The translations under genes were made by a program, and so were the position numbers. A stretch of 64,000 nt of DNA from Betaproteobacteria bacterium. Lineage in GTDB: Bacteria > Pseudomonadota > Gammaproteobacteria > Burkholderiales > Ga0077523. The notes under the pieces were generated by a model. It had not been told where the DNA came from. It was given only the letters and a program-made list of their open reading frames with translations, and searched no databases. The stretch is taken from assembly GCA_025350245.1 (NCBI GenBank), contig JANXYG010000052.1:12265-76264 (forward strand). Direction: 5' to 3'. This document shows, in pieces, positions 619 through 61,133 of the stretch (positions within the stretch are counted from its first letter, which is position 1; each line of letters opens with the position of its first letter).

Positions 619-650
619 CCGGTTCACTTTTGGAGGTAACGATGGTTGCT

Positions 651-749
651 GCCAAGCGAAGGGGCAACATCCGCAGGGTTCCCCGAGGAATGTTGCGCCC
701 CCTGGAGGGGGAAGGCGGAGCGTAGCAAAGCCTGGGGGTGGGCGTCACC
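651..749 (-). repeat. Structured intergenic repeat, family A, distal copy of a tandem pair (sense strand is minus)
   Basis: Sense read: GACGCCCACCCCCAGGCTTTGCTACGCTCCGCCTTCCCCCTCCAGGGGGCGCAACATTCCTCGGGGAACCCTGCGGATGTTGCCCCTTCGCTTGGC. Hairpin 1 is CCCCCTCCAGGGGG; hairpin 2 stem is GCAACAT/ATGTTGC. Confidence 0.9.
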
Positions 750-836
750 TGGGGCAACATCCGCAGGGTTCCCCGAGGAATGTTGCGCCCCCTGGAGGGG
801 GAAGGCGAAGCGCAGCGCAGCCTGGGGGTGGGTCAC
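750..836 (-). repeat. Structured intergenic repeat, family A, proximal copy of a tandem pair; starts 2-3 nt after the ptsI stop
   Basis: Near-identical to 651-749, with the same two hairpins. Preceded on the sense strand by TGAATGTGAC (ptsI stop codon plus leader). Confidence 0.9.
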
Positions 837-838
837 AT

Positions 839-2563
839 TCAGCCTGCGTTGAGTTTTTCGAGCAGGGCGTACATCTTGTCGGGCTCATCGGTGCGCAGCA
901 TGCGCCTGGCGATCTGGGCGACCTCATCGAGATCGGATTTGAGCACCACGCGCTTCACCGACAACACGTTGGCCGGATGCATCGAGAACTGGCGCAGGCC
1001 GAACCCGAGCAGCAGACGCGTGAGCGTGGGGTCGCCGGCCATTTCGCCACACACTGCCACCGGCTTGCCGGCCTTGGCGCCAGCCTGGATGATGCCGGCG
1101 ATCAGCTGCAGGACGGCCGGGTGCAGCGGGTCGTAGAGATGCGCCACGGCGTCATCGGTGCGGTCGATCGCGAGCGTGTACTGGATCAGGTCGTTGGTGC
1201 CGATCGACAGGAAGTCGAGCTTGCGAGTGAAGATGCCGAGCGAGAGCGCCGCGGCGGGGATCTCGATCATGCCGCCGACCGGGATCGCCGGATCGAAGGC
1301 GATCTCGTCGTCCTCGAGGCTGCGTTTCGCCTCGGCAATGGCCTGCAGGGTCTGGTTCAGCTCGTGCAGCGACGACAGCATCGGCACCAGCAGCCTGACC
1401 TTGCCGAAGGCCGACGCCCGCAGGATCGCGCGCAGTTGCCGCTGGAACATCTGCGGTTCGGCTAGGCATAGCCGGATCGCGCGGAGGCCCAGCGCGGGAT
1501 TCGCCGACACCCGTTCGGTGCCGTGCAGTTCCTTGTCGGCGCCCAGATCGAAGGTGCGGATGGTGACCGGCAACCCGTCCATCTCGGTCACGACCTTGCG
1601 ATAGGCCTCGAACTGCTCGTCCTCGTCCGGCAGGCCGCGCCGGTTCAGGTACAGGAATTCAGTCCGGAACAGGCCGATACCGGCTGCGCCCGCGGTGCGC
1701 ACCTGGTCGACGTCGCCGGGCAGCTCGATGTTCGCGTGCAGTTCGATGCGGGTACCGTCGAGCGTGGCCGCGCGGGTGGTCTTGAGGCGTTGCAGCTTCT
1801 GCCGGTCGAGATCCCATTCGTCCTGGCGCAGCCGATATTCGGCCAGCGTGGTTTCGTCCGGGTTGACGATGACCACGCCATGGCCGCCATCGACGATCAG
1901 CAATTCGTCTTCGCGCACCAGCTTGCGCGCGTGGTGCAGGGCGACGATGGACGGGATGCCCAGACTGCGCGCGACGATTGCGGTGTGCGACGTGGTGCCG
2001 CCCAGGTCGGTGATGAAGCTCGCGAACCGGTGCTGCTTGAACAGGATGACATCGGCGGGCGAAAGATCGCGGGCAACCAGGATGCTGCCGTCCTCCGGCG
2101 AGGCGATGGCGGCGCTGGTGGTGTCGAGTATGAGCGCCGCGAGCACGCGCTCGACCACCTGGCGCACATCGGTCTTGCGCTCGCGCAGGTAGGGGTCGTC
2201 GATGCGATCGAACTGCTCAAGCAGCGCCTCCATCTGTTGCTTGAGCGCCCACTCGGCATTGCACAGTTGCGCGGCGATCATGGCCTTCGGTGCCGCCGCG
2301 ATCATCTCGTCGCCCAGGATCATCAGGTGGACGTTGAGAAACGCGCCGAACTCGGCCGGCGCGTTGTGCGGGATGTGGCTCGCCAGTTGTGACAACTCGC
2401 CCCGCACCCGGCCGATCGCCGATTCGAAGCGCGCCTGCTCCTGCGCGACATCGGCCTCGGTGATCTCGAGGTGCGGCACCTCGAGCTGGGCGTGGGTGAC
2501 CAGGTGCGCCCGGCCGATGGCGATGCCGCTGGAGACGCCGATGCCGTGGAGAGTGAAGCTCAT
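839..2563 (-). CDS. ptsI: Phosphoenolpyruvate-protein phosphotransferase (PTS enzyme I)
   Basis: ORF 839..2605. MSFTLHGIGVSSGIAIGRAHLV is a typical EI N-terminus, with phospho-His region GGTTSHTAIVARSLGIP and C-terminal PEP-utilising domain FLSIGTNDLIQYTLA. Start set at ATG 2563; the track's 2605 start is a TTG. Start uncertain. Confidence 0.9.
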   Translation of the reverse strand: MSFTLHGIGVSSGIAIGRAHLVTHAQLEVPHLEITEADVAQEQARFESAIGRVRGELSQLASHIPHNAPAEFGAFLNVHLMILGDEMIAAAPKAMIAAQLCNAEWALKQQMEALLEQFDRIDDPYLRERKTDVRQVVERVLAALILDTTSAAIASPEDGSILVARDLSPADVILFKQHRFASFITDLGGTTSHTAIVARSLGIPSIVALHHARKLVREDELLIVDGGHGVVIVNPDETTLAEYRLRQDEWDLDRQKLQRLKTTRAATLDGTRIELHANIELPGDVDQVRTAGAAGIGLFRTEFLYLNRRGLPDEDEQFEAYRKVVTEMDGLPVTIRTFDLGADKELHGTERVSANPALGLRAIRLCLAEPQMFQRQLRAILRASAFGKVRLLVPMLSSLHELNQTLQAIAEAKRSLEDDEIAFDPAIPVGGMIEIPAAALSLGIFTRKLDFLSIGTNDLIQYTLAIDRTDDAVAHLYDPLHPAVLQLIAGIIQAGAKAGKPVAVCGEMAGDPTLTRLLLGFGLRQFSMHPANVLSVKRVVLKSDLDEVAQIARRMLRTDEPDKMYALLEKLNAG

Positions 2564-3285: not shown

Positions 3286-3317
3286 GCGAGGTCCGCCGAA
3301 ACCGGAAGCTCCGGATT

Positions 3318-5865: not shown

Positions 5866-7107
5866 ATGCCTTATCAGCTACTCCGCTTCGCGTTCTCGTC
5901 GAAGCATCCCGAACCCCGCATGTTCCGCGAGCCGGATCGGCTCAAGGACACGTACGACGCCGTTATCATCGGCGCCGGCGGGCATGGCCTTGCAAGTGCC
6001 TACTATCTGGCGCGCGACCATGGAATGACGAATGTAGCGGTGCTCGACCGCGGCTATCTCGGCGGCGGCAACACCGGGCGCAACACCGCGATCATCCGGT
6101 CGAACTACCTCACGCCCGAGGGTGTTGCCTTCTACGATCAGTCGGTGCGTCTGTGGCAGGACCTCGCCCAGGACTTCGACCTCAACCTTTTCTACTCCAC
6201 GCGCGGCCACTTCACGCTCGCCCACACTGATTCTGCGGTGCGGACCATGCGCTGGCGGGCCGAGGTCAACAAGCACTTCGGCATCGACAGCGAACTGGTT
6301 GGCCCCGACGCCGTCGGCAAGGCCTGTCCGCAGATGGATCTGAGCTGCGGCGGTCACGCGCCGATCATGGGGGCCCTCTACCATGCGCCCGGCGCGATCG
6401 CCCGACATGATGCCGTTGCCTGGGGCTATGGGCGCGGCGCCGACCAGCGCGGCGTCGAGATCCATCAGCAGACCGAAGTGCTCGGCATCGATGTCGAGGC
6501 CGGGCAGGTCAAGGGCGTTCGGACCTCGAAGGGCTACATTTCCACGCGCAAGGTCCTGTGCGCCGTGGCCGGGTTCACCCCGCGCGTGTGCGACATGGTC
6601 GGGCTGCGCACGCCGATCTACATTCATCCGTTGCAGGCCATGGTGACCGAACCGCAGAAGCCGTGGCTCGATCCCATCCTGGTGTCGGGCAGCCTGCATA
6701 TCTATGTGAGCCAGTCCGCGCGGGGCGAACTGGTCATGGGCGCCTCGCTCGACCCCTACGAACTGCATTCGACCCGGTCCACGCTCGACTTCGTGGAGGG
6801 GCTCTCGGCACACATGCTGGACCTGTTCCCGTTCCTGTCGAACGCCCGCATCAACCGGCAATGGGCCGGCATGGCGGACATGACCCCTGACTTCGCGCCG
6901 ATCATGGGCAAGACGCCGGTGACCGGGTTCTACCTCGATTCGGGCTGGGGCACCTGGGGTTTCAAGGCAACGCCGGTGTGCGGCAAGACCATGTCGTACA
7001 CGCTGGCCAATGACCGCAACCATCCTCTGATCGAAGGGTTCGGCCTGGCGCGCTTCGAGCGCTACGAGCTCACCGGCGAGAAGGGTGCCGCCAGCGTGGG
7101 GCATTGA
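5866..7107 (+). CDS. mgdA: N-methylglutamate dehydrogenase / heterotetrameric sarcosine-oxidase family, beta subunit (FAD)
   Basis: 413 aa. DAVIIGAGGHGLASAYYLA dinucleotide fold; GGNTGRNTAIIRSNY is typical of SoxB. Followed by the delta, alpha and gamma subunits. Confidence 0.85.
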   Translation: MPYQLLRFAFSSKHPEPRMFREPDRLKDTYDAVIIGAGGHGLASAYYLARDHGMTNVAVLDRGYLGGGNTGRNTAIIRSNYLTPEGVAFYDQSVRLWQDLAQDFDLNLFYSTRGHFTLAHTDSAVRTMRWRAEVNKHFGIDSELVGPDAVGKACPQMDLSCGGHAPIMGALYHAPGAIARHDAVAWGYGRGADQRGVEIHQQTEVLGIDVEAGQVKGVRTSKGYISTRKVLCAVAGFTPRVCDMVGLRTPIYIHPLQAMVTEPQKPWLDPILVSGSLHIYVSQSARGELVMGASLDPYELHSTRSTLDFVEGLSAHMLDLFPFLSNARINRQWAGMADMTPDFAPIMGKTPVTGFYLDSGWGTWGFKATPVCGKTMSYTLANDRNHPLIEGFGLARFERYELTGEKGAASVGH

Positions 7108-7225
7108 AATGAAACGCCCACCCCCAGGCTGCGCTGCGCTGCGCCTTCCCCCTCGAGGGGGCGCCCCGTTCCTCGGGGGACCCTGCGGACGGGGCCCCTT
7201 CGCTTCGGGTATGCCCTTCGTTCAC
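7108..7225 (+). repeat. Structured intergenic repeat, family A, full-length copy
   Basis: The 12-mer TGAAATGAAACG (7105-7116, including the mgdA stop) is followed by CCCACCCCCAGGCTGCGCTGCGCTGCGCCTTCCCCCTCGAGGGGGCGCCCCGTTCCTCGGGGGACCCTGCGGACGGGGCCCCTTCGCTTCGGGTATGCCCTTCGTTCAC. Confidence 0.9.
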
Positions 7226-7296
7226 CTGGCGGGCTCGCAGGGCCTCGCGGGTCGCGCGCCGAGGTCGGCGCCCCACGGGGCCGAGGCGGGACGCAC

Positions 7297-7575
7297 ATGA
7301 AGCTGCTGCGCTGCCCGGTAAACGGGGTTCGCCCGGTATCCGAGTTCGCCTACGGCGGCGAGATCCGGTCGATGCCGGCCGACACCTGCTCCGATATCGA
7401 GTGGGCACACTATGTATTCAACCGCAGCGGGGTTCCCGGCGTGAAGGTGGAGTGGTGGTATCACATCGCCAGCGGCACCTGGTTTCACGCCGAGCGCGAT
7501 ACCGTGACCGACCGTGTGCTGCGCACCTGGCTCCCCGGCGACCTGCCGCCGGCGGCGGACGGTAAGGCGGCATGA
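7297..7575 (+). CDS. mgdB: Sarcosine-oxidase-family delta subunit
   Basis: 92 aa. MKLLRCPVNGVRPVSEFAYGGE...WWYH is the typical SoxD zinc-ribbon-like N-terminus. ATGA overlap with the next gene. Confidence 0.85.
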   Translation: MKLLRCPVNGVRPVSEFAYGGEIRSMPADTCSDIEWAHYVFNRSGVPGVKVEWWYHIASGTWFHAERDTVTDRVLRTWLPGDLPPAADGKAA

Positions 7576-11236: not shown

Positions 11237-12571
11237 ATGACACCCGCACAGGCCAGGAAGTTCTTCAAGGACAACGAGATCCGCTACATCCTCGCGCAGT
11301 TCGTGGACATCCACGGCACGGCGAAGGCCAAGGCGGTGCCGGTCGAGCACCTCGACATGGTCCTCGAGAACGGCGCCGGTTTCGCCGGCTTCGCGCTCTG
11401 GGGCTTCGGCATGGGCCCGCACGGCCCGGACTACATGGCGAAGGGCGACCTCACCACGTTGCAGGCGATGCCCTGGATGCCGGGCTTCGCGCGCATGGCG
11501 ACCTATGGCTACACCAACAACAAACCGTACGCGTACGACTCGCGGTACGCGCTCAAGCTGCAGCTCGACCAGCTCACGGCCAAGGGCCTCACGCTCTTCA
11601 CCGGTATCGAACCCGAGTTCATGCTGCTCAAGCGCGCGCCCGATGGCAGCATCGCGCCGTGCGATGACACCGATACCCTCGAGAAGCCCTGCTACGACTA
11701 CAAGGGGTTGGCGCGCAGCGCCGCGTTTCTCGACAAGTTCACGCAGTCGCTGCGCGCGGTGGGCATCGACGTGTACCAGATCGATCACGAAGACGCGAAC
11801 GGCCAGTTCGAGGTGAACTTCACCTACTCGGACGCGCTGACCTCGGCGGACCGCATCATCTTCCTCAAGATGGCAGCGTCGGAAATCGCCCACCAGATGG
11901 GCCTGATCGTGACCTTCATGCCCAAGCCGTTCTCGAATCGCACCGGCACCGGTTCGCACTTCCATCTGTCGATGGGCGACGGCAAGACCGCGAACCTGTT
12001 CCACGACGACAAGGACAAGCAGGGCCTCGGGCTGTCGAAGATGGCGTACCAGTTCCTGGGCGGCCTGCTGGCACACGCGCCCGGCCTGACCGCGCTGTGC
12101 GCACCGACGGTCAACTCGTACAAGCGGCTCGTGGTCGGCCGCGCGCTGTCGGGCGCGACCTGGGCGCCGGCCTACATCGCCTACGGCGACAACAACCGCA
12201 CCTGCATGGTCCGGGTGCCGTACGGGCGCCTGGAACTGCGCCTGCCGGATGGCGCGATCAATCCCTACCTGGTGACGGCCGCAGTGATCGGCGCCGGCAT
12301 GGACGGCATCGCGAACAAGGTCGATCCGGGTGCGCCGGTCAACGAAAACCTCTACGAGTGGTCGCCGAAGCAACTGGCCGACGCCGGCATCAAGGTCCTG
12401 CCGCAGAACCTCAGCGAGGCCCTGGATGCACTCGAAGCGGACGACGTCCTGTGCACAGCGCTCGGTCGCGATCTGGCGGCAGAGTTCATCCGGCTCAAGC
12501 GCATGGAATGGGTGGAGTACTCGCGCCATGTGTCGGCGTGGGAGGTCGAGCGGTACCTTGAATTCTTCTGA
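11237..12571 (+). CDS. gmaS: Glutamine-synthetase-family enzyme, predicted gamma-glutamylmethylamide synthetase
   Basis: 444 aa type-III-like GS fold ([28 protein letters not shown]). Sits between the mgd and mgs genes, as in described NMG clusters. Confidence 0.8.
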
Positions 12572-12665
12572 AATGAAACGTCCACCCCCAGGCTCCGCTG
12601 CGCTACGCCTTCCTCCTCGAGGGGGCCGGTGTCCTCGGGGGGGCCGGTTGTGGGCACCGTGGGAG
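12569..12665 (+). repeat. Structured intergenic repeat, family A (diverged 3' half)
   Basis: The same 12-mer TGAAATGAAACG contains the gmaS stop. It is followed by TCCACCCCCAGGCTCCGCTGCGCTACGCCTTCCTCCTCGAGGGGGCCGGTGTCCTCGGGGGGGCCGGTTGTGGGCACCG. Hairpin 2 stem is CGGTG/CACCG. Confidence 0.85.
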
Positions 12666-12672
12666 ACATGAC

Positions 12673-27469: not shown

Positions 27470-28150
27470 ATGACTGAGAATCCATCCCGCTCCGGCACCG
27501 CGAACAGTGCCGGGTCACGAGAGGCACCGAAAGTCGACACTCCCTCGGTCCCGCCTACTCGGGAAGGCAGCACCGGCTTGGAGCGCCATATCGGCCACGT
27601 GCTCAAGTCGCTGCGGCTGCAGCAGAAACTCACCATCGCCGACGTCGCGGCAGAAGCCCGCATCAGCCGGGGCATGCTCTCGAAGATCGAGAACGGCCAG
27701 TCCTCCGCCAGTCTGGAGACGCTCGCCAAGCTGTGCGACGTGCTGGGCGTTTCGCTCGGCCACCTGTTCAGGAACTACGACCGACCCGATGGCGGTGCCC
27801 AGCTGGTAAAGGACGATGCCGGCATGGAGGTCGTACGCCGGGGCACCAAGCGCGGCCACACCTATCAATTGCTCGCCTACGACAAGGGGCCGCGCAAGAG
27901 TTTCGAGCCGTTCCTCATCTCGATGGATGACAGCAGCGAGATCTTCCAGAGCTTCGAGCACCCCGGCACGGAGTTCATCTACATGCTCACCGGCAGGATC
28001 GACTATCGCCATGGGCAGCACACCTATGTGCTCGAACCGGGCGATGCGCTCACGTTCCGTGGCGAGGTCCCACACGGACCAGAGAAGCTCCTGGAAGTCC
28101 CGATCAGGTTCCTGTCCGTGATCGTCTACAGCGAGCCGGGCGACGGCTGA
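27470..28150 (+). CDS. XRE-family HTH plus cupin-domain transcriptional regulator (paralog 2, with an about 35 aa N-terminal extension)
   Basis: 226 aa. The HTH is LTIADVAAEARISRGMLSKIENG; the cupin is HPGTEFIYMLTGRIDYRHG..GEVPHGPEKLLEVPI. Collinear with the 15713..16306 product. Confidence 0.8.
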   Translation: MTENPSRSGTANSAGSREAPKVDTPSVPPTREGSTGLERHIGHVLKSLRLQQKLTIADVAAEARISRGMLSKIENGQSSASLETLAKLCDVLGVSLGHLFRNYDRPDGGAQLVKDDAGMEVVRRGTKRGHTYQLLAYDKGPRKSFEPFLISMDDSSEIFQSFEHPGTEFIYMLTGRIDYRHGQHTYVLEPGDALTFRGEVPHGPEKLLEVPIRFLSVIVYSEPGDG

Positions 28151-28240
28151 GCGGACACCCACCCCCAGCCAGAGCGCGTTCGGATTCCACACCTTGGCGC
28201 GGGTGGCGCTCGGGACTGACCTGCGCCGCAACCACAAAGG

Positions 28241-33354: not shown

Positions 33355-37104
<3,750 letters not shown>

Positions 37105-37219
37105 GTTGACGCCCACCCCCAGGCTGCGCTGCGCTGCGCCTTCCCCCTCGAGGGGGCGCCCCGTCCTCGGGGGGGCCCTGTGGGCGGGGTCCCTTCGTTT
37201 CGGATGTTTCCTTCGTTCA
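37105..37219 (+). repeat. Structured intergenic repeat, family A, first of a tandem pair
   Basis: The metH stop and leader TGAGTTGAC are followed by GCCCACCCCCAGGCTGCGCTGCGCTGCGCCTTCCCCCTCGAGGGGGCGCCCCGTCCTCGGGGGGGCCCTGTGGGCGGGGTCCCTTCGTTTCGGATGTTTCCTTCGTTCA. Confidence 0.9.
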
Positions 37220-37330
37220 GCGCCCCCAGGCTGCGCTGCGCTGCGCCTTCCCCCTCGAGGGGGCGCCCCGTCCTCGGGGGGGCCCTGTGGACGGGGGCCC
37301 TCCGCTTGCCAGAGTTCCCGCCTTGGCTGG
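37220..37330 (+). repeat. Structured intergenic repeat, family A, second of a tandem pair
   Basis: GCGCCCCCAGGCTGCGCTGCGCTGCGCCTTCCCCCTCGAGGGGGCGCCCCGTCCTCGGGGGGGCCCTGTGGACGGGGGCCCTCCGCTTGCC..; a head-to-tail direct repeat of the previous copy. Confidence 0.9.
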
Positions 37331-38989: not shown

Positions 38990-39439
38990 ATGGAACCGTT
39001 GTTTGCTTGGCTGCATTTCGTGGCGATGCTCGCGCTCGGTTCGACCCTCGTGGCCGAACTGGTGCTGTGCACGGCGTCGTTGCGGGCGGCCCAGCTCGCC
39101 GCATTGCTTCGGGTCGACTCGCTCTATCTGCTGGCCGCGGTGGCCGTCCTGGCAACCGGTCTTGCGCGCCTGATCTGGTTCGCCAAAGGCCCCGGCTTCT
39201 ATCTGTCCAATCCGTCGTTCCAGATCAAGATCGGCTTGTTCATCGCGATCGGCCTGCTATCGTTGTCACCGACTCGGCACTATGTGCGCTGGCGCCGCGC
39301 GGCCCGCGATGGTCGCGGTGATCCGCCGCCCGCCGAGATTGCGCGCGTGCACCGCTACCTGGTGGCCGAACTCGTACTGTTGGCCGCGATGCCCTTGATG
39401 GCGTCACTCATGGCGCGCGGCATCGCTGTCTGGAACTGA
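38990..39439 (+). CDS. Small integral membrane protein (DUF2214-like)
   Basis: 149 aa with four hydrophobic segments. Family name from memory only. Confidence 0.5.
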   Translation: MEPLFAWLHFVAMLALGSTLVAELVLCTASLRAAQLAALLRVDSLYLLAAVAVLATGLARLIWFAKGPGFYLSNPSFQIKIGLFIAIGLLSLSPTRHYVRWRRAARDGRGDPPPAEIARVHRYLVAELVLLAAMPLMASLMARGIAVWN

Positions 39440-39559
39440 AAATGAGGACCACCCCCCCAGGCTGCGCTTGTGCTCCGCCTTCCCCCCTCGAGGGGGCGCA
39501 GCGTTCCTCGGGAAACCCAGCGGAGGCTGCCCCTTCGCTTCAGAGTTTCCCTTCGTTCA
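39437..39559 (+). repeat. Structured intergenic repeat, family A, full-length
   Basis: TGAAAATGAGGA (includes the stop) is followed by CCACCCCCCCAGGCTGCGCTTGTGCTCCGCCTTCCCCCCTCGAGGGGGCGCAGCGTTCCTCGGGAAACCCAGCGGAGGCTGCCCCTTCGCTTCAGAGTTTCCCTTCGTTCA. Confidence 0.9.
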
Positions 39560-39649
39560 GCATTCTCGGGGGATGCTGCGGACATGACCGATTGATTCAG
39601 AATCCTCTGATCTCCATTCGTTCCCCATCCTGAAACGGTACTGTCCTTC

Positions 39650-42147: not shown

Positions 42148-43593
42148 ATGTCTGAAGTGCAAGAGACTCGCCCTCGACCGGAGACTTTGCGGGAGCACCT
42201 GAAACAGGTTCAGGACATGCTTCGGAAACACCGGCTCGTCGAGCACCTGGTGCACAGCCAGGACATGCCGCGGCACGAGCTGGTGGAGTCGCTCGTCCAC
42301 AAGCAGAACCTCGCCGAACTGCGCAAGAAGCTCGACGTGCTGCACCCGGCCGACGTCGCCTACATTCTTGAATCGGTGCCGCTGGCCGAACGGCGGGTGG
42401 TGTGGGATCTGGTCAAGGCGGATCGCGATGGCGAGATCCTGCTCGAAGTGTCGGATGCGGTGCGCGAATCGCTCATCGCGAGCATGGCACCGCAGGAACT
42501 GGTCGCGGCGGCCGAGCATCTCGACACCGATGAACTCGCCGACCTCGCCCCCGATCTTCCCGGCAATGTTCTCGAGGACGTCTTTCGTTCGTTGTCGGTG
42601 GAGGAGCGCCAGCAGTTGCGCGCCGCCATGTCATATCCGGAGGATTCGGTCGGCGCCCTCATGGATTTCGACATGGTAACGGTGCGCGAGGACGTCACGC
42701 TCGAAGTCGTGCTGCGCTATCTGCGGCGGCTCGACGAGCTGCCGGACCACACCGACCAGTTGTTCGTGGTCGATCGTGACGAAAAGCTCAAGGGTCGTCT
42801 GCCGGTCAACCGGCTGCTGGTGAGCGATCCCGAGCGGCTGGTCGGCGAACTGATGGATACCGATGTCGTGCGCTTCACGCCGCAGCAGAATGCGGACGAG
42901 GCGGCCCAGGCATTCGAGCGCTATGACCTCGTCTCCGCCCCGGTGGTCGACGCCAGCGAGGCGCTGGTCGGCCGGGTCACGGTCGATGTGATGGTCGACT
43001 TCATCCGTTCAGAGTCCGAAACCGAAGTGCTCAATCTCGCCGGCCTGCGCGAAGAGGAGGACATCTTCGCCTCGGTCTGGAAATCGGCGAAGAACCGCTG
43101 GACCTGGCTCGCCATCAATCTCGTCACCGCCTTCGTCGCTTCGCGGGTGATCGGTCTGTTCGAGGGCAGCATCGAGAAGCTGGTGGCGCTGGCGGCGCTG
43201 ATGCCGATCGTCGCCGGTATCGGTGGCAACTCCGGCAACCAGACCATCACCATGATCGTCCGCGCCATGGCGCTCGGACAGATCACCCCGCGCAACGCCC
43301 GTGGCCTGCTCAAGAAAGAGCTCGTGATCAGCCTGCTCAACGGCCTGGTATGGGGATCGATCTTCGGCGTGTTCGCGACTGTCCTGTATCACAGCATTCC
43401 GCTCGGCCTGGTGATGATGTCGGCCATGGCGCTCAATCTGATCGTGGCGGCCAGCTTCGGTGTGTTCATCCCGATGCTCCTGCATCGGTTCGGGCGCGAC
43501 CCGGCGGTCGGGTCGAGCGTGCTGATCACAGCCATCACCGACAGTGGCGGGTTCTTCATCTTTCTCGGACTGGCAACGCTATTCCTGGTGTGA
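42148..43593 (+). CDS. mgtE: Magnesium transporter MgtE
   Basis: 481 aa from the internal Met of ORF 42076..43593. N-domain, CBS pair and TM domain, with GIGGNSGNQ and ITDSGGFF motifs. Confidence 0.9.
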   Translation: MSEVQETRPRPETLREHLKQVQDMLRKHRLVEHLVHSQDMPRHELVESLVHKQNLAELRKKLDVLHPADVAYILESVPLAERRVVWDLVKADRDGEILLEVSDAVRESLIASMAPQELVAAAEHLDTDELADLAPDLPGNVLEDVFRSLSVEERQQLRAAMSYPEDSVGALMDFDMVTVREDVTLEVVLRYLRRLDELPDHTDQLFVVDRDEKLKGRLPVNRLLVSDPERLVGELMDTDVVRFTPQQNADEAAQAFERYDLVSAPVVDASEALVGRVTVDVMVDFIRSESETEVLNLAGLREEEDIFASVWKSAKNRWTWLAINLVTAFVASRVIGLFEGSIEKLVALAALMPIVAGIGGNSGNQTITMIVRAMALGQITPRNARGLLKKELVISLLNGLVWGSIFGVFATVLYHSIPLGLVMMSAMALNLIVAASFGVFIPMLLHRFGRDPAVGSSVLITAITDSGGFFIFLGLATLFLV

Positions 43594-43700
43594 GGTGACA
43601 GGTGACGCCCACCCCCAGGCTGCGCTGCGCTGCGCCTTCCCCCTCAAAAGGGGGCGCAGCATCCTCGGGGAACCCTGTGGTGCTGCCCGTACGATTCGGG
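43591..43700 (+). repeat. Structured intergenic repeat, family A
   Basis: TGAGGTGACAGGTGAC is followed by GCCCACCCCCAGGCTGCGCTGCGCTGCGCCTTCCCCCTCAAAAGGGGGCGCAGCATCCTCGGGGAACCCTGTGGTGCTGCCCG. Hairpin 1 loop is changed to CAAA; hairpin 2 stem is GCAGCA/TGCTGC. Confidence 0.9.
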
Positions 43701-43766
43701 CCGGTCCTGCATCCGCAGCGCGCCTGCTCGCGTATCGTCCGGCTCCTCACCCATCGATCGCTGCAC

Positions 43767-44732: not shown

Positions 44733-45689
44733 ATGCTCATCCGGCGTCCGTCCGATATCGCCCCCTCCGAGATCACCCCACGCGCGCTGTTTGAAGACCG
44801 GCGGCAATTCATCCGTGATGCCGGGCTGTTCGCCGCGGCCGCCGGGCTGGCTGTCACGGGGGTGCATCCACGATCCGCGCGCGCCCAGACCGGCAAGGGG
44901 TTTCCAAACCTGAAGAAGGGGGCCTATCCGATCGGCGAAGCATCGACGCCGTTCAAGGACGTCACCTCGTACAACAACTTCTACGAGTTCGGCACCGGCA
45001 AGGAAGATCCCGCCGAGAATGCGGGCACGCTCAAGCCACGGCCGTGGTCGGTGTCGGTCGAGGGCGAATGTGCCAAGCCAAGGCGCTGGGATCTCGATGA
45101 ACTGCTGAAACTCGCCGCGCTCGAGGAGCGCATCTACCGCCTGCGCTGCGTCGAAGGCTGGTCGATGGTGATTCCCTGGGTGGGTTACCCGCTGGCAGAG
45201 CTGATCAAGCGGGCCGAGCCGGCGTCCAAGGCGAAGTATGTCGAGTTCACCACGCTCATGGACCCGAAGCAGATGCCCGGTCAGCGCATGGCCGTACTCG
45301 ACTGGCCCTACGTCGAAGGCCTGCGCATCGACGAGGCCATGAATCCGCTCACCTTGCTGACGCTCGGTCTCTATGGCGACGTGCTCCCGAACCAGAACGG
45401 TGCCCCGGTGCGCGTGGTCGTGCCGTGGAAATACGGCTTCAAGAGCGCCAAGTCGATCGTGCGCATCCGCTTCACCGAGCAGGAACCGCGCACCGCCTGG
45501 AACAAGGCGATCGCCAGCGAGTACGGGTTCTACTCCAACGTCAATCCGCAGGTCGATCATCCGCGCTGGAGCCAGGCGCGCGAGCGGCGCATCGGTGAAT
45601 TCACCAAGCGTCCGACCCTGATGTTCAACGGCTACGGCGAGCAGGTCGCAAGCCTGTATACCGGCATGGATCCGAAGAAGTTCTTTTGA
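44733..45689 (+). CDS. msrP: Protein-methionine-sulfoxide reductase catalytic subunit MsrP (molybdopterin)
   Basis: 318 aa from the internal Met of ORF 44691..45689, with a CAGGAG RBS. Tat signal [16 protein letters not shown]; YNNFYEFG motif. Confidence 0.9.
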
Positions 45690-46369
45690 TCCCGAGCTGG
45701 CGTCCCGACGCCGGGCAGGCGCGGTGGCTCAAGGTCGCCTTGTTTCTGCTGTGCCTTGCGCCTTTCGTGCGCCTGGGGTGGCTGGCCTGGCACCACGGTC
45801 TGGGCGCCAACCCGATCGAGCACATCACCCGCGCCACCGGCTGGTGGACACTGACCTTCCTGATGATCACGCTCACAGTCACGCCGGCGCGCAAGCTGCT
45901 GTCGCAACCATGGCTGCTGCGCCTGCGGCGCATGCTCGGCCTGTTTGCGTTTTTCTACGGGAGCCTGCACTTCACCACCTACCTCTGGCTCGACCAGTTC
46001 TTCGATGTCGGCGCGATCATCAAGGATGTGATCAAGCGGCCCTTCATCACGCTTGGCTTCAGCGCCTTCGTGCTGCTGATTCCGCTGGCGGCGACCTCCA
46101 CCAATGCCATGGTCAGGCGTCTCGGCGCAAGACGTTGGCAATGGCTGCACCAGGCGGTCTTCGTGATCGGCACGCTCGGCGTCATCCACTTCTGGTGGCT
46201 GGTGAAGAAGGACATCACCGAGCCGCTGATCTTCGCGGCGATTCTGTCGGTGTTGCTGGGTACGCGCGTGGTCTATCGCCTGCGCGATACCCGGCCCGAA
46301 GCCCGAAACCGGAGCGTTGTCCGGCCTTACCCCCGAGGACGGGGCGCCCCCTCGAGGGGGAAGGCGTAG
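45686..46369 (+). CDS. msrQ: Protein-methionine-sulfoxide reductase heme-binding subunit MsrQ; last about 15 codons lie inside a repeat element
   Basis: 227 aa with an ATGA overlap with msrP. Ferric-reductase-like TM domain (His in LHFTTYLW and LGVIHFWW). The C-terminal tail ..[15 protein letters not shown] is encoded by the antisense of the repeat at 46326-46388. Confidence 0.85.
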
Positions 46370-46388
46370 CGCGCAGCCTGGAGGGCTA
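46326..46388 (-). repeat. Structured intergenic repeat, family A, 3'-truncated copy (sense is minus)
   Basis: Sense read: TAG (stop of 46386..47000) CCCTCCAGGCTGCGCGCTACGCCTTCCCCCTCGAGGGGGCGCCCCGTCCTCGGGGG. Only the first hairpin and the start of the second are present. Confidence 0.8.
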
Positions 46389-47000
46389 CACCTTTACCCA
46401 CGTTTCCGCGAAGGCGAGATGGGCGGTCGAGCTGTCTTTTTTTCCGGCGAACTCGCGGGGAAAAGGGCGACCCGGCAGTGCCTTGCCGTTGATGTGCCCG
46501 GCGATCTCGTGCACGTCCACGAACATCGAGAACATCTCGTGCTTGCCGGTGACCGAGCGCTCCTTCGACATCTCGACCATGAAGCGGTCGCCCCAGCCCT
46601 TCCACACCAGTTGCACCTCGCCGATGGCGGAACGGAAGCCTTCGGTATGCTGGGTGCCGCCATCGCCGGCAGGCGCGAAATCCCAACCCGGAACCATCCT
46701 CGCCCCCGCCAGCGCCTGGTTGCCCCGGAACGCCAGGAAGTTGGCGACGAAGTTGTCGCGCAGGTAGGCTGCCAGCGGTTCGTTGTCGGTGATGCAGACA
46801 TTGGGCCGTTCCGGATCGTGGCCATCACCATGCGGATCGAGCAGCATGAACGCCGCGTGCCCGGCACCGTGTGCCGAAACCACCACGCGGAAGAAACTGA
46901 TCAGGGTGATGAAGGGGCCGTCGGCCTGGTGGCGCAGATACATGCCGGGGTTTTCGCCGGCCCATTCCACGGTGCCGGGGTTGACGAGAGGGCGGGTCAT
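46386..47000 (-). CDS. Hypothetical protein (204 aa)
   Basis: Internal Met (MTRPLVNPGTVEW) of ORF 46386..47030 with an AGGAGA RBS. No recognisable motifs. Confidence 0.55.
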   Translation of the reverse strand: MTRPLVNPGTVEWAGENPGMYLRHQADGPFITLISFFRVVVSAHGAGHAAFMLLDPHGDGHDPERPNVCITDNEPLAAYLRDNFVANFLAFRGNQALAGARMVPGWDFAPAGDGGTQHTEGFRSAIGEVQLVWKGWGDRFMVEMSKERSVTGKHEMFSMFVDVHEIAGHINGKALPGRPFPREFAGKKDSSTAHLAFAETWVKV

Positions 47001-47063: not shown

Positions 47064-47549
47064 CTACCCTGTCGCCTCGGGCGCTAGGCGTCTGACATCA
47101 TGCCCGAGCCGGATCGCGGCTTCCCGGCCGCGGTAGTAGCCTGGCATCAGGAACAGCTCGTGGTAGCCCAGGGCCGCATAGAAGCGCCGCGCGGCGGTGT
47201 TCGAGGCGCGCGCCTCCAGATAGACCGTGCCGATACCGGCGGTGCGGGCGCTGTCTTCGAGCCAGGTAACCAGCGCGCGCCCAAGGCCCCGGCCATGCCA
47301 GGCGGGGTCGATCGCCAGCAGTGAAAGATGCGCGTGCTCATCGTGGAACTCCATGATGGCGAAGCCGGCACGGGCATCGCCCGCCTCGGCGACGATGGTG
47401 CAGGTGGCGAGGTCGGCAATGGCGCGGGCAACCCGGTGTCCCGTCCAGCGCCAGCCCAGGCCCGACTCGATCAGGTCTCGCGACCAGCTGGCAATGCGGG
47501 GCGCGTCGTCGATGCTTGCCAAGCGGATGACGGGTGGTGGCATCACCAC
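47064..47549 (-). CDS. GNAT-family N-acetyltransferase
   Basis: 161 aa. Acetyl-CoA pocket HGRGLGRALV; ..ARRFYAALGY. The start is either GTG 47549 or ATG 47543. Confidence 0.8.
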   Translation of the reverse strand: MVMPPPVIRLASIDDAPRIASWSRDLIESGLGWRWTGHRVARAIADLATCTIVAEAGDARAGFAIMEFHDEHAHLSLLAIDPAWHGRGLGRALVTWLEDSARTAGIGTVYLEARASNTAARRFYAALGYHELFLMPGYYRGREAAIRLGHDVRRLAPEATG

Positions 47550-47550
47550 G

Positions 47551-47636
47551 GCGCCCGCCCGGCCGCCCCGAAGGGCGCCGGCCCCCCATCGGGGGGTAGC
47601 GACCGAAGGAAGCTTGGGGGGGAGGTCAACTCAGCG
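47551..47636 (-). repeat. Structured intergenic repeat, subfamily B (sense is minus)
   Basis: Sense read: (lysA stop) TGACGCTGAGTTGAC CTCCCCCCCAAGCTTCCTTCGGTCGCTACCCCCCGATGGGGGGCCGGCGCCCTTCGGGGCGGCC. Hairpins are CCCCCCGATGGGGGG and GCCCTTCGGGGC. Confidence 0.8.
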
Positions 47637-53127: not shown

Positions 53128-53227
53128 GACAGTCCGGAGCGAAGGGGCAGCGCCCACAGGGCTCCCCGAGGACGCTGCGCCCCCTCGGGGGGAAGGCGAA
53201 GCGCAGCGCAGCCTGGGGGGGGCGTTC
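53128..53227 (-). repeat. Structured intergenic repeat, family A, filling the entire glyQ-glyS spacer (sense is minus)
   Basis: Sense read: TGAGAACGCCCCCCCCAGGCTGCGCTGCGCTTCGCCTTCCCCCCGAGGGGGCGCAGCGTCCTCGGGGAGCCCTGTGGGCGCTGCCCCTTCGCTCCGGACTGTC followed directly by ATG (glyS). Confidence 0.9.
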
Positions 53228-54112
53228 TCATGCTGCCCTCTGGTTCGCGGCGAGCATCGGAAAGCCCAGTCGCTCGCGCGACTGGTAGTAGGCCTGCGCC
53301 ACCGCCCGGGCGAGCGTGCGGATGCGCCCGATGTACCCGGCCCGCTCGGTCACGGAGATGGCTCCCCGTGCGTCGAGCATGTTGAAGGTGTGCGCGCTCT
53401 TGAGCACCATCTCGTAGGCGGGAAGTGCCAGTCCGACGCCGATCAGGCGCTTCGCCTCGCCCTCGAAGTCGTTGAACTGCCGCAACAGCCAGTCGGCATT
53501 CGAGTGCTCGAAGTTGTAGGCCGACTGCTCGACTTCGTTCTGGTGGAATACGTCGCGGTAGGTGATGCCCGGCGTCCACACCAGGTCGAACACGTTCTCG
53601 ACGCCCTGCAGATACATGCACAGGCGTTCGAGGCCGTAGGTGATCTCGCCCAGCACCGGCTTGCAGTCGATGCCGCCGACCTGCTGGAAATAGGTGAACT
53701 GTGTCACTTCCATGCCGTTGAGCCAGACCTCCCAGCCCAGCCCCCAGGCGCCGAGCGTGGGATTCTCCCAGTCGTCCTCGACCAGGCGGATGTCGTTGAT
53801 CGTCGGGTCGATGCCGATGGCTTCGAGCGAACCGAGATACAGGTCGAGGATGTCCTGCGGCGCGGGTTTCAGAACCACCTGGAACTGGTAGTAGTGCTGC
53901 AGCCGGTTCGGGTTGTCGCCGTAGCGACCGTCTTTCGGGCGGCGCGAGGGTTGCACGTAGGCCGCACGCCAGGGCTCCGGCCCCAGGGCGCGCAGGAACG
54001 TCGCGGTGTGCGAGGTTCCTGCGCCGACCTCCATGTCGTAGGGTTGCACCAGCGCACAGCCGCGCATGCCCCAATAGTTCTGGAGCGTGAGAATGAGGTC
54101 CTGGAAATGCAT
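53228..54112 (-). CDS. glyQ: Glycine-tRNA ligase alpha subunit
   Basis: 294 aa from the internal Met ([14 protein letters not shown]) of ORF 53228..54244. Confidence 0.95.
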
Positions 54113-60518: not shown

Positions 60519-60523
60519 GGCGC

Positions 60524-61060: not shown

Positions 61061-61130
61061 GTGAGACCCACCCCAGGTTGCGCTGCGCTGCGCCTTCTCC
61101 CAATGGGGCGCCGCGAGCTTGGGAGCGGCC
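61061..61130 (+). repeat. Structured intergenic repeat, short A/B-intermediate copy; the only one not behind a co-oriented stop codon
   Basis: GTGAGACCCACCCCAGGTTGCGCTGCGCTGCGCCTTCTCCCAATGGGGCGCCGCGAGCTTGGGAGCGGCC. Ends 3 nt before the ubiH-family ATG. Confidence 0.8.
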
Positions 61131-61133
61131 ACC

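Follow-up and report, generated by a model that had tools for sequence, protein, structure and literature searches.

Repeat Copies in the Window and Their Architecture

The window—the whole 64,000-nt stretch of DNA from an uncultured betaproteobacterium analyzed here—contains copies of a structured repeat, which we recovered with nhmmer and repeat finding. Its genes were placed with a codon-model map and Pfam, which identified among the upstream genes a PEP-utilizing enzyme (ptsI), MetH, DUF2214, MgtE, a LysA-type decarboxylase, GlyQ, TonB_C, and an HTH-cupin regulator. The focal copy (7105..7300, plus strand) follows mgdA, a sarcosine-oxidase-beta-like gene. The mgdA stop codon (TGA, 7105–7107) and a single A precede an ATG at 7109, and an L-type unit reaching to ~7229 (7105–7229+) is followed by ~70 nt of decayed repeat. 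From this ATG, an open reading frame (ORF) of 63 codons (7109–7300) runs as far as soxD, its TGA sharing bases with the soxD start ATG at 7297 (ATGA). At gmaS (12569..12672, plus strand), the stop TGA (12569–12571) and an A again lead to an ATG, at 12573; the unit consists of the head and a variant hairpin 2 (repeat match 12569–12642+), and the bridging ORF of 32 codons ends in TGA-C-ATG, with its stop at 12669–12671 and the ATG of the MCG... amidotransferase at 12673. The earlier note had reported one 12-mer, TGAAATGAAACG, at both stop codons, and it is indeed found at 7105 and 12569. What that note overlooked is that the 12-mer contains a stop plus a start, TGA-A-ATG, and that the frame of this start bridges to the next start codon.

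Three minus-strand copies are bridged as well. The glyQ–glyS copy (53124..53231) fills its junction with one L-type unit (53230–53133): an ATG at 53231 overlaps the glyQ stop (TGA, 53230–53228), and the final TGA of the 35-codon ORF overlaps the glyS ATG at 53127, so that the bridge has an ATGA overlap at both ends. Behind the ptsI-like gene (619..841; stop TGA 841–839, leader ATGTGAC), two L-type units (833–751 and 748–652) and a degenerate tail are crossed by a 70-codon ORF from GTG 836 to TGA 626–624, 5 nt from the holA-like ATG at 618. At the lysA-type gene (47543..47639), the native stop (TGA, 47639–47637) and CGC are followed by a complete leader, TGAGTTGAC, with its own TGA and by an S'-type unit (47622 downwards). 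The 28-codon bridging ORF, from TTG 47629 to TGA 47545–47543, overlaps at its end GTG/ATG start candidates of the next ORF.

On the plus strand, the metH array (37102..37307; leader TGAGTTGAC) comprises tandem L-type units at 37108–37219 and 37223–37307, and the mgtE copy (43591..43714; leader TGAGGTGACAGGTGAC) is one chimeric unit (43597–43710+). The frames from TTG 37106 and GTG 43602, respectively, are in frame with the downstream ORFs, that of metH being open throughout. The orthologous metH copy in L045 has the leader TGAGGTGAC, and the mgtE site in a metagenome-assembled genome (MAG) holds three units vs. one in the window. The DUF2214 copy (39437..39633; leader TGAAAATGAGGAC), which has an orthologue in L028, is an L-type unit (39440–39560+) with a 63-codon ORF from ATG 39442 to TGA 39631, 16 nt short of the next called start.

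The remaining copies are shorter or differently placed. A truncated unit on the minus strand (46312..46388; unit 46385–46312) forms the beginning of a nested module and lies behind a hypothetical gene (46386..47000) that stops on TAG, and a convergent ORF (45686..46369, plus strand) terminates within it. The TonB_C copy (63811..63880, plus strand; stop TGA 63811–63813, leader GAGTTGC, S'-type unit 63821+) lies in a convergent spacer. Behind the HTH-cupin regulator (28148..28175, plus strand), only the head remains, TGAGCGGACACCCACCCCCAGCC at 28151+, with a canonical bidirectional terminator (28241–28268) on its 3' side. A last copy (61061..61133, plus strand), an S-type unit at 61066–61123, lies in the leader of an FAD-monooxygenase gene, with a divergent tRNA-Met on the other side. 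The loop motif of this unit, GGGAG, is 8 nt before ATG 61134, and a Pfam FAD_binding_3 match begins at residue 3 counted from that ATG.

The repeat unit is a mosaic of modules, 80–125 nt long with three GC-rich hairpins, and occurs as L-type, S-type, S'-type, and chimeric units in several sub-families. The head, CCACCCCCAGGC, is rich in C and poor in G, but on no strand other than the sense strand (CGCCCACCCCCAGGCTGCGC...CCTTCCCCC), hairpin 2 is followed by CCCCUUCGCUUC, and S-type units end in CACTGA. The ends of the element are NTGAC and GTTCAGC, and their end-to-end inverse match is weak (5–8 nt, TGAAC...GTTCA). Pairing is present in 98.1% of hairpin cells compared with 40–58% in slid controls, compensatory changes occur at five pairs, and 100 sense-strand G·U pairs stand against 16 A·C cells, the equivalents of antisense G·U. 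Folding energy was no better than that of shuffled sequence on either strand (z = −0.3 and −0.2), so the case for structure rests on covariation. A search against Rfam gave no family match to the repeats; only tRNA and SAM_alpha reached the gathering score in the window, and the best E-value over the focal copy was 0.84. An IS110-like fragment inserts into these repeats in L049 and L016.

Across copies, the leader follows the consensus [stop]-N-NTGA-C, which places TGA in two frames and ATG, GTG, or TTG in the third; the earlier note's description of leaders rich in TGA in more than one frame thus holds. The leader belongs to the element itself: internal array units carry (T/G/C)GAGGTGAC, the stop is followed by G or A in 46 of 54 arrays (background 43%), the lysA-type copy brings a complete leader behind a native stop, and 87 of 93 first units have A, G, or T as the N of NTGA. 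Among internal units, TGA has been lost in 31 of 68, and ATG is rare in the remaining ones. A Shine–Dalgarno reading of the leader GAGGTGA, the complement of the usual 16S anti-Shine–Dalgarno sequence (the window holds no 16S rRNA gene), was dropped, as leaders such as GTTGAC, GATGAC, and AATGAAAC do not fit it.

Placement at Stop Codons and Insertional Origin

How strictly are the repeats tied to gene ends? We assembled a census of 516 kb, consisting of the window and 67 loci fetched with the element pattern, mostly from a MAG ~94% identical; genes in these loci were called with our own script, and a few loci are orthologues of the window or of one another. The census contains 178 heads in 110 arrays of one to five units, all of them direct and head-to-tail, with periods of ~33, 80–85, and 104–107 nt. 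The window holds 13 copies or remnants; 12 of them begin 0–15 nt past a same-strand stop codon, the exception being the unit at 61066. Upstream sequence was available for 102 census arrays, and 86 of these are anchored no more than 25 nt behind a same-strand stop, one of them (arfB) by manual rescue. The distance from the stop to CCACCCCC has its mode at 8 nt, and the joins are nucleotide-precise, reading stop + 0–2 nt + NTGAC in most arrays. Where genes were called on both sides, 75 of 87 arrays are anchored; random position and orientation within the residual spacer would give 27.5 (z = 14).

Orientation is constrained as well. Co-directional spacers hold 59 sense arrays vs. 5 antisense as called, or 4 after the arfB correction (binomial P ~ 1e-12, computed on 59:5). 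Sense arrays leave a gap of at most 5 nt on the stop side in 55 of 59 cases (10.4 expected), and this gap is shorter than the start-side gap in 56 and longer in 1. Because the median native spacer measures just 34 nt, closeness to the stop codon is partly geometric. Anchoring extends to convergent spacers (14 of 18 arrays), and convergent gene ends are themselves enriched, accounting for 21% of arrays vs. 9% of gene pairs. The earlier note had claimed that 10 of 11 loci begin at a stop codon in the sense orientation of the upstream gene and had proposed a comparison with random expectation; with that comparison made on 516 kb, both the anchoring and the orientation of the repeats are real, lie far beyond chance, and recur in a second genome. 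A by-product of replication direction, in the manner of IS200/IS605, was set aside because the strand of the element tracks that of the gene, which switches repeatedly within 64 kb. Of the long ORFs whose ends coincide with the leader of exceptional arrays, a single one is a real gene, arfB, with its GGQ motif; the others resemble arginine-rich antisense frames.

The repeat copies are of insertional origin. Orthologous sites in relatives are empty, with native spacers of −1, 11, and 29 nt: L158 lacks the array at ptsI (11-nt spacer) and at gmaS (29-nt spacer), and at mgdA–soxD it has a TGATG overlap, L156 is without the element, and L157 carries another sub-family, bridged by 58 codons of its own. 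The glyQ–glyS junction in relatives is an ATGA overlap or a spacer of <30 nt. Empty sites, together with a different sub-family at the same junction, mean that the copies are insertions into formerly coupled junctions. The earlier note's suggestion of oriented insertion at gene ends is borne out by these filled and empty orthologous sites and by the independent insertions at mgdA–soxD.

Does the repeat also supply the stop codon, as the same note proposed? For ~15 arrays it does: the gene terminates on the TGA of the element's own NTGAC motif, the base before this TGA is A or T in 13 of the 15 (background 33%), and in two filled/empty pairs the native stop has decayed and lies at the 3' side of the array. 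The proposal fails for the focal loci, mgdA and gmaS, where empty relatives stop at the same position; MgdA is 413 aa long in 116 of the best 120 homologues, and GmaS is 444 aa long in nearly all. Stops of anchored genes (66 TGA, 13 TAG, and 6 TAA) are near the usage of all genes. Reading a stop triplet at the downstream start as a displaced native stop was abandoned as a general test; NTGA starts are equally common in spacers that lack elements (34% vs. 39%).

A scan of the 516 kb in six frames for the motif of a RAYT/Y1 transposase (HxH... Y..NP) found none, and target duplications of at least 8 nt showed no excess around arrays relative to permuted controls (10-mers at the stop). Possible duplications of 3–5 nt (TGA and CATGA) appear at single sites only: CATGA flanks the inserted array on both sides at glyQ, and in filled vs. 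empty comparisons, TGA...TAT corresponds to a native TAG and TGA...CTAA to a native CTAG. These observations bear on the idea that the repeat is purely selfish, with strict target and orientation specificity. A recombinase would target T-R-R/TGA triplets in the orientation of the triplet, perhaps duplicating it, selection would merely purge copies within genes, and the bridging frames described below would be a by-product of G+C richness. The precision of the joins, the anchoring in convergent spacers, the stop-like triplets on both sides of inserted arrays, the CACTGA ends of S-type units, and the repeated use of the mgdA–soxD junction all fit such an element. A 3-nt target, however, cannot separate real stops from the other triplets of a spacer, and 84% of arrays are at real stops; the idea also leaves the preference for the NTG frame, indels in multiples of three, and the enrichment of ATG in first units unaccounted for, and neither a duplication of at least 8 nt nor a transposase was found in the material searched. 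We regard a purely selfish element as unlikely.

Bridging Frames and Possible Roles

In five of the eight co-directional window arrays, the frame opened by the NTG runs through the array and ends on or beside the next start codon, and in two further arrays (metH and mgtE) it reads into the next ORF. Across the census, this frame ends between −12 and +4 nt from the called start in 21 of 65 arrays, compared with 6 for control frame 2, and a complete bridge is present in 25 of ~65 arrays, compared with 11. The fraction with a complete bridge is just ~38% of co-directional census arrays, and start-codon calls may be partly responsible for this low value. At a G+C content of 65%, frames are often open by chance, and about one-third of start codons precede an A and hence form NTGA; the signal is therefore carried by one frame being preferred (P ~ 0.006–0.03) and by orthologue comparisons. 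The gmaS frame is kept across three relatives at 32, 31, and 31 codons (31 in L156 and L157), with length differences between orthologues in multiples of three, and that of the ptsI array is kept in two at 70 and 67 codons (67 in L156). The mgdA–soxD junction received arrays of different sub-families on two independent occasions, and the bridge in each finishes with an NTGA overlap. In other lineages, where unrelated inserts have expanded the glyQ–glyS junction, 6 of 10 such junctions (5 of 9 independent ones) contain a bridging ORF.

The bridging frames exist at the positions given; we infer that they are translated and matter for expression. A conserved peptide was rejected, as leaders of the ATGAAAC type and the GTGAC type read the head in different frames (MKRPPPGCAALRLPP... 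vs. VTPTPRLRCA... or VTHPQAALRF...) and copies differ by 1- to 2-nt indels in hairpin loops. This variation of the bridge peptide, with different frames of the head read by different leader types, counts against the bridging reading.

Could the hairpins instead end transcription? The repeats might be terminators or attenuators, either hairpins without a U-tract, as the earlier note had suggested, or Rho-dependent sites at the C-rich head. The composition of the head, C-rich and G-poor on the sense strand alone, is suggestive, as is the scarcity of canonical intrinsic terminators: the earlier note had seen only one, and the terminator at 28241–28268 is indeed the only one in the 60 kb scanned, that is, the window without 60001–64000. 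Nonetheless, copies sit inside operons, between the genes of co-produced subunits (glyQ–glyS, mgdA–soxD, and gmaS–mgsA), their hairpins have no T-run behind them, and the terminator scan yielded no more sites than shuffled sequence and flagged no element on the sense strand within those 60 kb. The suggestion of terminators without a U-tract is not supported, and a role in termination or attenuation is highly improbable.

A different RNA role, and the main reading of the earlier note, would be that of hairpins in the 3' UTR or between cistrons, which block 3'–5' exonucleases or mark processing sites and so stabilize the upstream message or set unequal levels within an operon, as in REP, ERIC, and Correia repeats; hairpins near the stop might also perturb termination, as Escherichia coli REPs do. 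Three conserved hairpins with compensatory changes and sense-strand G·U pairs, the enrichment at convergent gene ends, and the scarcity of canonical terminators speak for it, and there is precedent in E. coli, where 260 of 496 REPs are found no farther than 15 nt from a stop codon and stall ribosomes (PMC12306157). A stabilizer, however, would need neither a distance of 0–2 nt to the stop nor a start codon nor stops in two frames; minimum free energies resemble those of shuffled sequence, and a translated bridge would melt the hairpins of operon-internal copies. We consider it rather improbable that this role explains the repeats, slightly more so than a purely selfish element. A role in stabilization or processing is possible, especially at convergent gene ends, since the hairpins are real and better formed on the sense strand.

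The best explanation, and one that we hold to be on balance probable, is that these are mobile stop–restart repeats that restore translational coupling after insertion. The repeats would be a lineage-specific, nonautonomous mobile mosaic that forms direct tandem arrays and whose copies settle at the 3' boundaries of ORFs in a single orientation. Their 5' end would act as a stop–restart cassette, with TGA in two frames and ATG, GTG, or TTG in the third, and could for that reason land on or behind a stop codon, even at ATGA or TGATG junctions, and leave the length of the upstream protein unchanged. After terminating at the upstream gene, ribosomes would restart at the NTG, read through the folded repeat, and terminate at or next to the following start codon, a relay that would restore the coupling otherwise broken by the insertion, as described for mycobacterial MIRUs. 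Orientation and anchoring would then reflect oriented insertion near stops plus purifying selection in very short native spacers. Anchoring in convergent spacers is equally tight, and there is nothing to couple there, so selection for the relay is not the whole cause; a preference of the insertion for stop codons must be assumed, for which there is no known mark at the DNA level, and the nature of the insertion machinery we can only infer. The fullest form of the idea—a portable stop–restart cassette, mobile DNA that is found nearly only at stops and survives at coupled junctions as a translated, throw-away bridge—is one that we put forward tentatively and would sooner doubt than accept.

If the frames are used, the repeats would be a second, independent invention of the MIRU strategy, in Proteobacteria and with far more copies, and would show how a compact genome absorbs hundreds of structured insertions without uncoupling overlapping operon junctions. 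They would offer a model for termination–reinitiation across 30–70 codons of strongly folded RNA, with natural filled and empty junctions in close relatives (glyQ–glyS, mgdA–soxD, and gmaS–mgsA). The same bridging rule seems to apply to the unrelated glyQ–glyS inserts of other lineages; if so, coupled junctions in bacteria would generally need a bridging ORF in order to expand. That the repeats are placed almost exclusively at stop codons, in convergent spacers too, is not accounted for by any known insertion mechanism. The cassette reading, if true, would also raise the question of how in-frame stops are recognized during insertion, one example being by way of single-stranded DNA that the last ribosome leaves exposed behind it. 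For annotation, short spacer ORFs may be repeat-derived, as may N-terminal extensions in the genes that follow an array, such as those after metH and mgtE here, and a repeat can supply a gene's stop or last codon.

Comparison with Known Repeat Systems

Do the repeats belong to a mobile class that is already known, be it RAYT-moved REPs or REPINs, classical MITEs with terminal inverted repeats, or integron attC sites? REPs are ~35-nt palindromes with a GT[AG]G head; their orientation varies, they also form inverted pairs, and RAYT transposases move them. Like REPs and BIMEs, the repeats are extragenic, GC-rich hairpins that lie mostly behind genes, near their 3' ends; unlike them, they have units about three times longer, strict orientation, direct arrays, and a start codon, with no RAYT seen in the 516 kb. 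The counts of E. coli REPs near stop codons reportedly come from Liang et al. 2015. IS110-like elements target the repeats, as IS110-family elements do REPs (PMC12288879).

Among the MITE-like elements that act on mRNA are ERIC/IRU in Yersinia, Correia/NEMIS in Neisseria, and SMAG in Stenotrophomonas, whose orientation can alter the fate of the message. They share with our repeats an intergenic, co-transcribed position and folding in RNA, at ~100–150 nt, and they have clear terminal inverted repeats and TA duplications, are found in either orientation, and do not adjoin stop codons, whereas the repeats here are oriented and stop-joined, with only a weak inverse match between their ends (TGAAC...GTTCA). 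Sites of the attC kind start at or within the preceding stop codon in a fixed orientation and fold as single strands with strand-specific features; they depend on cassette arrays and the integrase of an integron, and their cores read RYYYAAC/GTTRRRY. The repeats abut stops in one orientation as attC sites do, but their neighbors are scattered housekeeping genes (ptsI, metH, glyQ, lysA, and mgtE), and the ends NTGAC and GTTCAGC miss those cores. With units of 80–125 nt and three hairpins, no GT[AG]G head, direct arrays only (no inverted pairs among 178 heads), and neither a RAYT-like ORF in 516 kb nor a target duplication of at least 8 nt, membership in any of these classes is very unlikely indeed. 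The G-rich heptamers of Xanthomonas and Nostoc also lie within 50 bp of stop codons or overlap them, strand-biased and between co-oriented ORFs, and are 7-nt tandem repeats that form G-quadruplexes (PMC4692102), unlike the ~100-nt structured units with a stop–restart leader found here.

The closest known kind are the mycobacterial MIRUs, whose description is said to go back to Supply et al. 1997. MIRUs (~40–100 bp) are described as lodging at start codons, with an ORF inside them that is coupled at −4 nt, and as forming direct tandem arrays in the spacers of co-transcribed genes (PMC12548453; PMC3184786). The resemblance to our repeats extends to an orientation that matches the genes (here 59 sense vs. 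4–5 antisense), a short ORF inside the repeat that meets or overlaps the flanking stop and start codons (here in five of the eight co-directional window arrays), filled and empty sites that point to mobility, and the proposed benefit of insertion with little effect on the expression of neighbors. MIRUs stand apart in their described placement at start codons, where the repeats here are anchored at the upstream stop, also in convergent spacers, and in numbering 40–50 per genome, where we find about one head per 3 kb in loci enriched for the element. The hosts differ too, being Betaproteobacteria rather than Actinobacteria, the sequences are presumably unrelated, and the leader with TGA in two frames and the three hairpins with compensatory changes are further differences from MIRUs as described. 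A betaproteobacterial host makes common descent unlikely. By analogy, then, the repeats would work like MIRUs, their closest known kind, without being filed as members of that family.

Copies in the window and their placement across related genomes

How many copies of the repeat does the window hold, and how are they placed relative to genes? A repeat search and an nhmmer run with the focal copy as query located 11 clear copies of one element in the window, whose G+C content is 65.5%. On the forward strand they lie behind mgdA (7105-7229), gmaS (12569-12642), metH (in tandem, 37108-37219 and 37223-37307), the DUF2214 gene (39440-39560) and mgtE (43597-43710), and at 61066-61123; on the reverse strand they lie behind ptsI (in tandem, 833-751 and 748-652), at 46385-46312 and in the glyQ-glyS junction (53230-53133). 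The same searches found sister-type copies behind lysA (47622 downwards, reverse strand) and a TonB-like gene (from 63821, forward strand), together with a remnant of the head, the 5' part of a unit (from 28151, forward strand). All copies except that at 61066 start 0-15 nt past a gene's stop codon on their own strand, as the earlier note had claimed, and the 12-mer TGAAATGAAACG is indeed common to the mgdA and gmaS copies. The gene names it gave are right according to a codon-model map and Pfam (PEP-utilising enzyme I, MetH, DUF2214, MgtE, LysA-type decarboxylase, GlyQ, TonB_C, HTH-cupin regulator), and separate checks bore out MgdA and GmaS.

Several other features of the window were seen. 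A convergent forward-strand ORF (45686-46369) terminates within the reverse-strand copy at 46312-46385; its final ~19 codons are repeat antisense, and its C-terminus and stop codon (TAG) may be repeat-derived. The two HTH-cupin regulator genes (15650-16306 and 27470-28150) are paralogues with ~72% nucleotide identity across ~400 nt (repeat families D3 and D6), and only the second precedes the repeat remnant and a bidirectional terminator of canonical form (28241-28268). Just 5' of metH, positions 33237-33313 (forward strand) match the SAM_alpha (SAM-II) riboswitch at 36.7 bits (Rfam gathering score 36), in a betaproteobacterial host.

Does this placement hold beyond the window? A species-representative genome collection scanned with a 25-nt core pattern gave at least 67 loci (452 kb), those listed coming nearly all from the MAG "Betaproteobacteria bacterium OTE_88_metabat_364" and a few from the MAG GFS_541. 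Two listed loci are syntenic with the window at ~94% identity; thus, the OTE_88 MAG is a close relative and a different genome. With heads found by pattern and genes called by our own codon model, as in the window (coding fraction 0.86), the census of window plus loci holds, among the matches listed, at least 178 heads in at least 110 arrays of one or more tandem units (61 single, 34 double, and 15 longer). On these gene calls, 85 of the 102 listed arrays having upstream sequence are anchored, beginning no more than 25 nt past a same-strand stop codon, or 86 of 102 once an arfB-like gene is added. That gene (locus L001, ~2745-3302, reverse strand; GGQ motif, ...RASGPGGQNVNKVSTAVELRF...) was missed by the codon-model caller and ends 9 nt 5' of an element head, so some census exceptions are gene-calling errors.

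Among listed arrays with a called gene on each side, 75 of 87 were anchored, against 27.5 expected from random position and orientation in the spacer left after array removal. The sense orientation described earlier also recurs: co-directional spacers hold 59 sense and 5 antisense arrays among the matches listed (P ~1e-12), or 4 antisense after the arfB correction. In 55 of the 59 listed sense arrays the stop-side gap is no more than 5 nt (10.4 expected), part of this closeness being unavoidable because native spacers between co-directional genes have a median length of just 34 nt; the stop side has the smaller gap in 56 arrays and the start side in 1. Convergent spacers, which hold 21% of listed arrays and 9% of gene pairs, obey anchoring too (14 of 18 arrays), and divergent spacers are under-represented. 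A 3.4-kb contig binned as an Acetobacteraceae MAG (JAYVCG010000665.1) carries a typical stop-anchored copy (caaTGACGC-CCACC), but the contig may simply have been misbinned, rather than showing that the element has spread to Alphaproteobacteria.

Filled and empty sites

The elements are insertions, not conserved motifs. We set the window against syntenic 21-kb loci from the OTE_88 MAG (L156) and from two relatives, L157 (MgdA 96% identical) and L158 (MgdA 89%). L158 has no element at any of three junctions: ptsI-holA (11 nt), mgdA-soxD (a TGATG overlap), and gmaS-mgsA (29 nt). At mgdA-soxD, the window carries one L-type unit, L157 two S'-type units behind a TAA stop, and the OTE_88 MAG a spacer of only 25 nt; the insertions in the window and L157 are independent events at one junction. 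In most of 80 relatives glyQ and glyS overlap (ATGA) or are less than 30 nt apart; in the window their junction holds one unit flanked by CATGA at each side. In two more filled/empty pairs the TGA of the element is the stop and the former stop has decayed 3' of the array (...GTCGC TGA [array] TAT ATCGG vs. ...GCCGC TAG ATCGG; GACCGCC TGA [head] CTAAAAGG vs. GACCGCC AAT CTAG G). Together with the census, these sites uphold the specific placement at gene ends that the earlier note had suspected. Arrays lacked flanking direct repeats of 8 nt or longer, and a search of the window and listed loci turned up no RAYT-like gene.

Two spacers of relatives deserve mention. The "empty" gmaS-mgsA spacer of L158 (16502-16530) contains a small C6/G5 hairpin (CGCCCCCCGGGGGCG) resembling hairpin 1 of the element, which could be what a lost copy left behind or a site where copies naturally land. 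In L154 (MgdA 86% identical), an unrelated 138-nt insert occupies the mgdA-soxD spacer (1943-2080), and by hand translation an ORF of ~44 codons runs from right after the stop (TGA-ATG) to 6 nt 5' of the soxD ATG.

Unit structure and the leader

An alignment of 63 full units gave the consensus nnAGGTGAC-GCCCACCCCCAGGCTGCGCTGCGCTnCGCCTTCCCCC-TCGA-GGGGGCGC-[stem]-TCCTCGGGGRACCCTGYGG-[stem']-CCCCTTCGCTTCnGAnnnnCCCTTCGTTCAGCA, for which RNAalifold predicted three hairpins. In the AGGC/GCCU hairpin, 4 copies have C-G in place of G-C, the second predicted hairpin is C5/G5, and the outer stem of the long hairpin 2 varies among sub-families by paired changes (GCCCCGT/ACGGGGC, GCAACAT/ATGTTGC, GCAGCGT/GCGCTGC). 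Paired cells make up 98.1%, vs. 40-58% with partners slid, and the covariation score is 0.162, vs. 0.071 for shuffles, figures that reflect few events because the sub-families share ancestry. Sense-strand G·U pairs number 100, vs. 16 A·C cells (which would be G·U on the opposite strand), most of them falling at two positions, so the fold is better on the sense strand. Folding energies showed no improvement over shuffled sequence, and no Rfam family matched the element. The family is a mosaic of L-type units, S and S' types with a distinct second hairpin (CAGTGCGC-TTGGGAGCGGCCCGG-CGCGCACTG), head-only units (33 nt), and a nested module of ~75 nt inside the loop of hairpin 2. The mgtE site has one chimeric unit in the window and three units in the MAG; thus, arrays change also by unequal recombination.

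S-type units (61066-61133 in the window; L011, L029, L044, L046, and L056) tend toward 3'-end anchoring, their hairpin closing with CACTGA and the ATG of the next gene lying 0-2 nt beyond; the truncated window copy has the loop motif GGGAG 8 nt 5' of the ATG at 61134, and just three of eight S-type first units are stop-anchored.

Where does the stop codon come from? The leaders of the 85 anchored arrays fall into two groups. In the first (~15 arrays) a conserved TGAC provides the TGA at which the gene stops (...caaTGACGC-CCACC), and A or T precedes it in 13 of 15 cases, vs. 33% in other genes, so the element gives N-TGA at the least, and with it the end of the gene's last codon. In the second (54 arrays) the gene's stop lies 5' of the element TGA, mostly exactly 2 nt apart (TGA-G-GTGAC, TGA-A-ATGAAAC, TAA-G-GTGAC, TAG-GTGAC), and G or A follows it in 46 of 54, vs. 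43% background, so the element starts right at the stop. Most stops of anchored genes look native, since their usage (66 TGA, 13 TAG, and 6 TAA) is similar to that of all genes (265, 81, and 40). The proposal that the repeat supplies the stop is therefore true of a subset, the ~15 arrays, and not of the focal loci, where the stop is in its native position: MgdA is 413 aa long in 116 of the best 120 homologues, and GmaS 444 aa in nearly all. At lysA a native TGA is followed by CGC and the complete leader TGAGTTGAC, so the leader owns a TGA. The N of NTGA makes a start codon (A, G, or T) in 87 of 93 first units; 36 first units have ATG there but just 2 of 37 internal units do, and the TGA itself has been lost from 31 of 68 internal units. 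As a cassette, then, the leader offers TGA in two frames and a start codon in the remaining one.

It is possible that the hairpins are RNA stabilisers or processing sites, mainly at operon ends; REPs of E. coli that lie no more than 15 nt from a stop are known to disturb termination (PMC12306157), but such a role needs neither a start codon nor nucleotide-exact placement. That the elements are terminators is unlikely: a terminator scan of 60 kb of the window found no T-runs behind the hairpins, and the copies in the glyQ-glyS, mgdA-soxD, and gmaS-mgsA junctions speak against the U-tract-less form suggested earlier.

The bridging frame and relation to known repeats

The earlier interpretation overlooked the start codon and the frame it opens. 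The shared 12-mer reads as stop plus start, TGA-A-ATG-AAA-CG, and we translated each window array from this ATG or the equivalent NTG, following the frame toward a bridge to the next gene's start. The mgdA bridge (63 codons) has a stop overlapping the soxD ATG (ATGA); that of gmaS (32 codons) ends TGA-C-ATG at the amidotransferase start, which is secure because the protein begins MCG; and that of glyQ (35 codons) has an ATG overlapping the glyQ stop and a TGA overlapping the glyS ATG. The ptsI bridge spans 70 codons over two units and ends 5 nt 5' of the holA ATG, a start pinned down by conservation in both L156 and L157, and the lysA bridge (28 codons) ends on GTG/ATG start candidates of the next ORF. 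The frame continues into the next ORF at metH and mgtE and ends 16 nt before the next start at the DUF2214 gene. Among the matches listed, it stops between -12 and +4 nt relative to the called start of the downstream gene in 21 of 65 arrays, vs. 6 for the other open frame, and reaches an in-frame start candidate as a complete bridge in 25 arrays vs. 11.

The frame is also conserved. The gmaS copy keeps it in three relatives (32, 31, and 31 codons), the extra A of L157 lying outside the ORF, the ptsI array keeps it in two (70 and 67 codons), and the independent S' array of L157 at mgdA-soxD has a 58-codon bridge of its own, whose stop lies in a GTGA overlap. In other lineages, 6 of 10 expanded glyQ-glyS junctions (5 of 9 independent) with unrelated inserts have bridges of 21-101 codons from on or next to the glyQ stop to on or next to the glyS start (L081, L116, L118/L121, L124, and L134); the L124 insert resembles the element family in antisense orientation, the bridge being present all the same. 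Because G+C-rich DNA often has open frames, about one-third of starts precede A and hence form NTGA, and the encoded peptides vary with leader type, the argument is one of frames and positions, not of a protein.

Anchoring, orientation, structure, an origin by insertion, and the frames with their conservation are demonstrated here; we infer that these frames are translated and beneficial. Most likely, the family would be mobile, non-autonomous DNA with a stop-restart cassette at its 5' end; copies would persist almost only where a stop codon is close enough to the NTG for reinitiation, in the orientation whose transcript presents the NTG and an open frame, and at operon-internal sites the bridge would pass ribosomes to the next start, an effect also described for mycobacterial interspersed repetitive units (MIRUs; Supply et al. 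1997, cited in PMC12548453 and PMC3184786). A purely selfish, target-specific element accounts for the precise joins but leaves the frame preference unexplained, and we consider it rather improbable. Anchoring is equally tight in convergent spacers, which suggests that insertion itself favours the stop region; a 3-nt DNA signal alone cannot provide such a preference, and, speculatively, single-stranded DNA exposed behind the last ribosome might.

Placement follows an unusually clean rule, and direct tests of the system are feasible. How does the element compare with known repeats? REP/REPIN and attC membership fails on defining features, and classical MITE membership is improbable. The same ~150-nt insert splits hairpin 1 of two copies (L049, ~3075-3217; L016, ~7664-7788) and encodes ...KKVALTACSHKLLRILNAMARA..., resembling the C-terminus of an IS110-family transposase, a likeness that suggests an IS or IS remnant targeting the repeat. 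REPs are known IS110-family targets (PMC12288879). The element itself is a stop-anchored mosaic repeat of an uncultured betaproteobacterial lineage, similar to the MIRU, whose internal ORF is described as coupling neighbouring genes.
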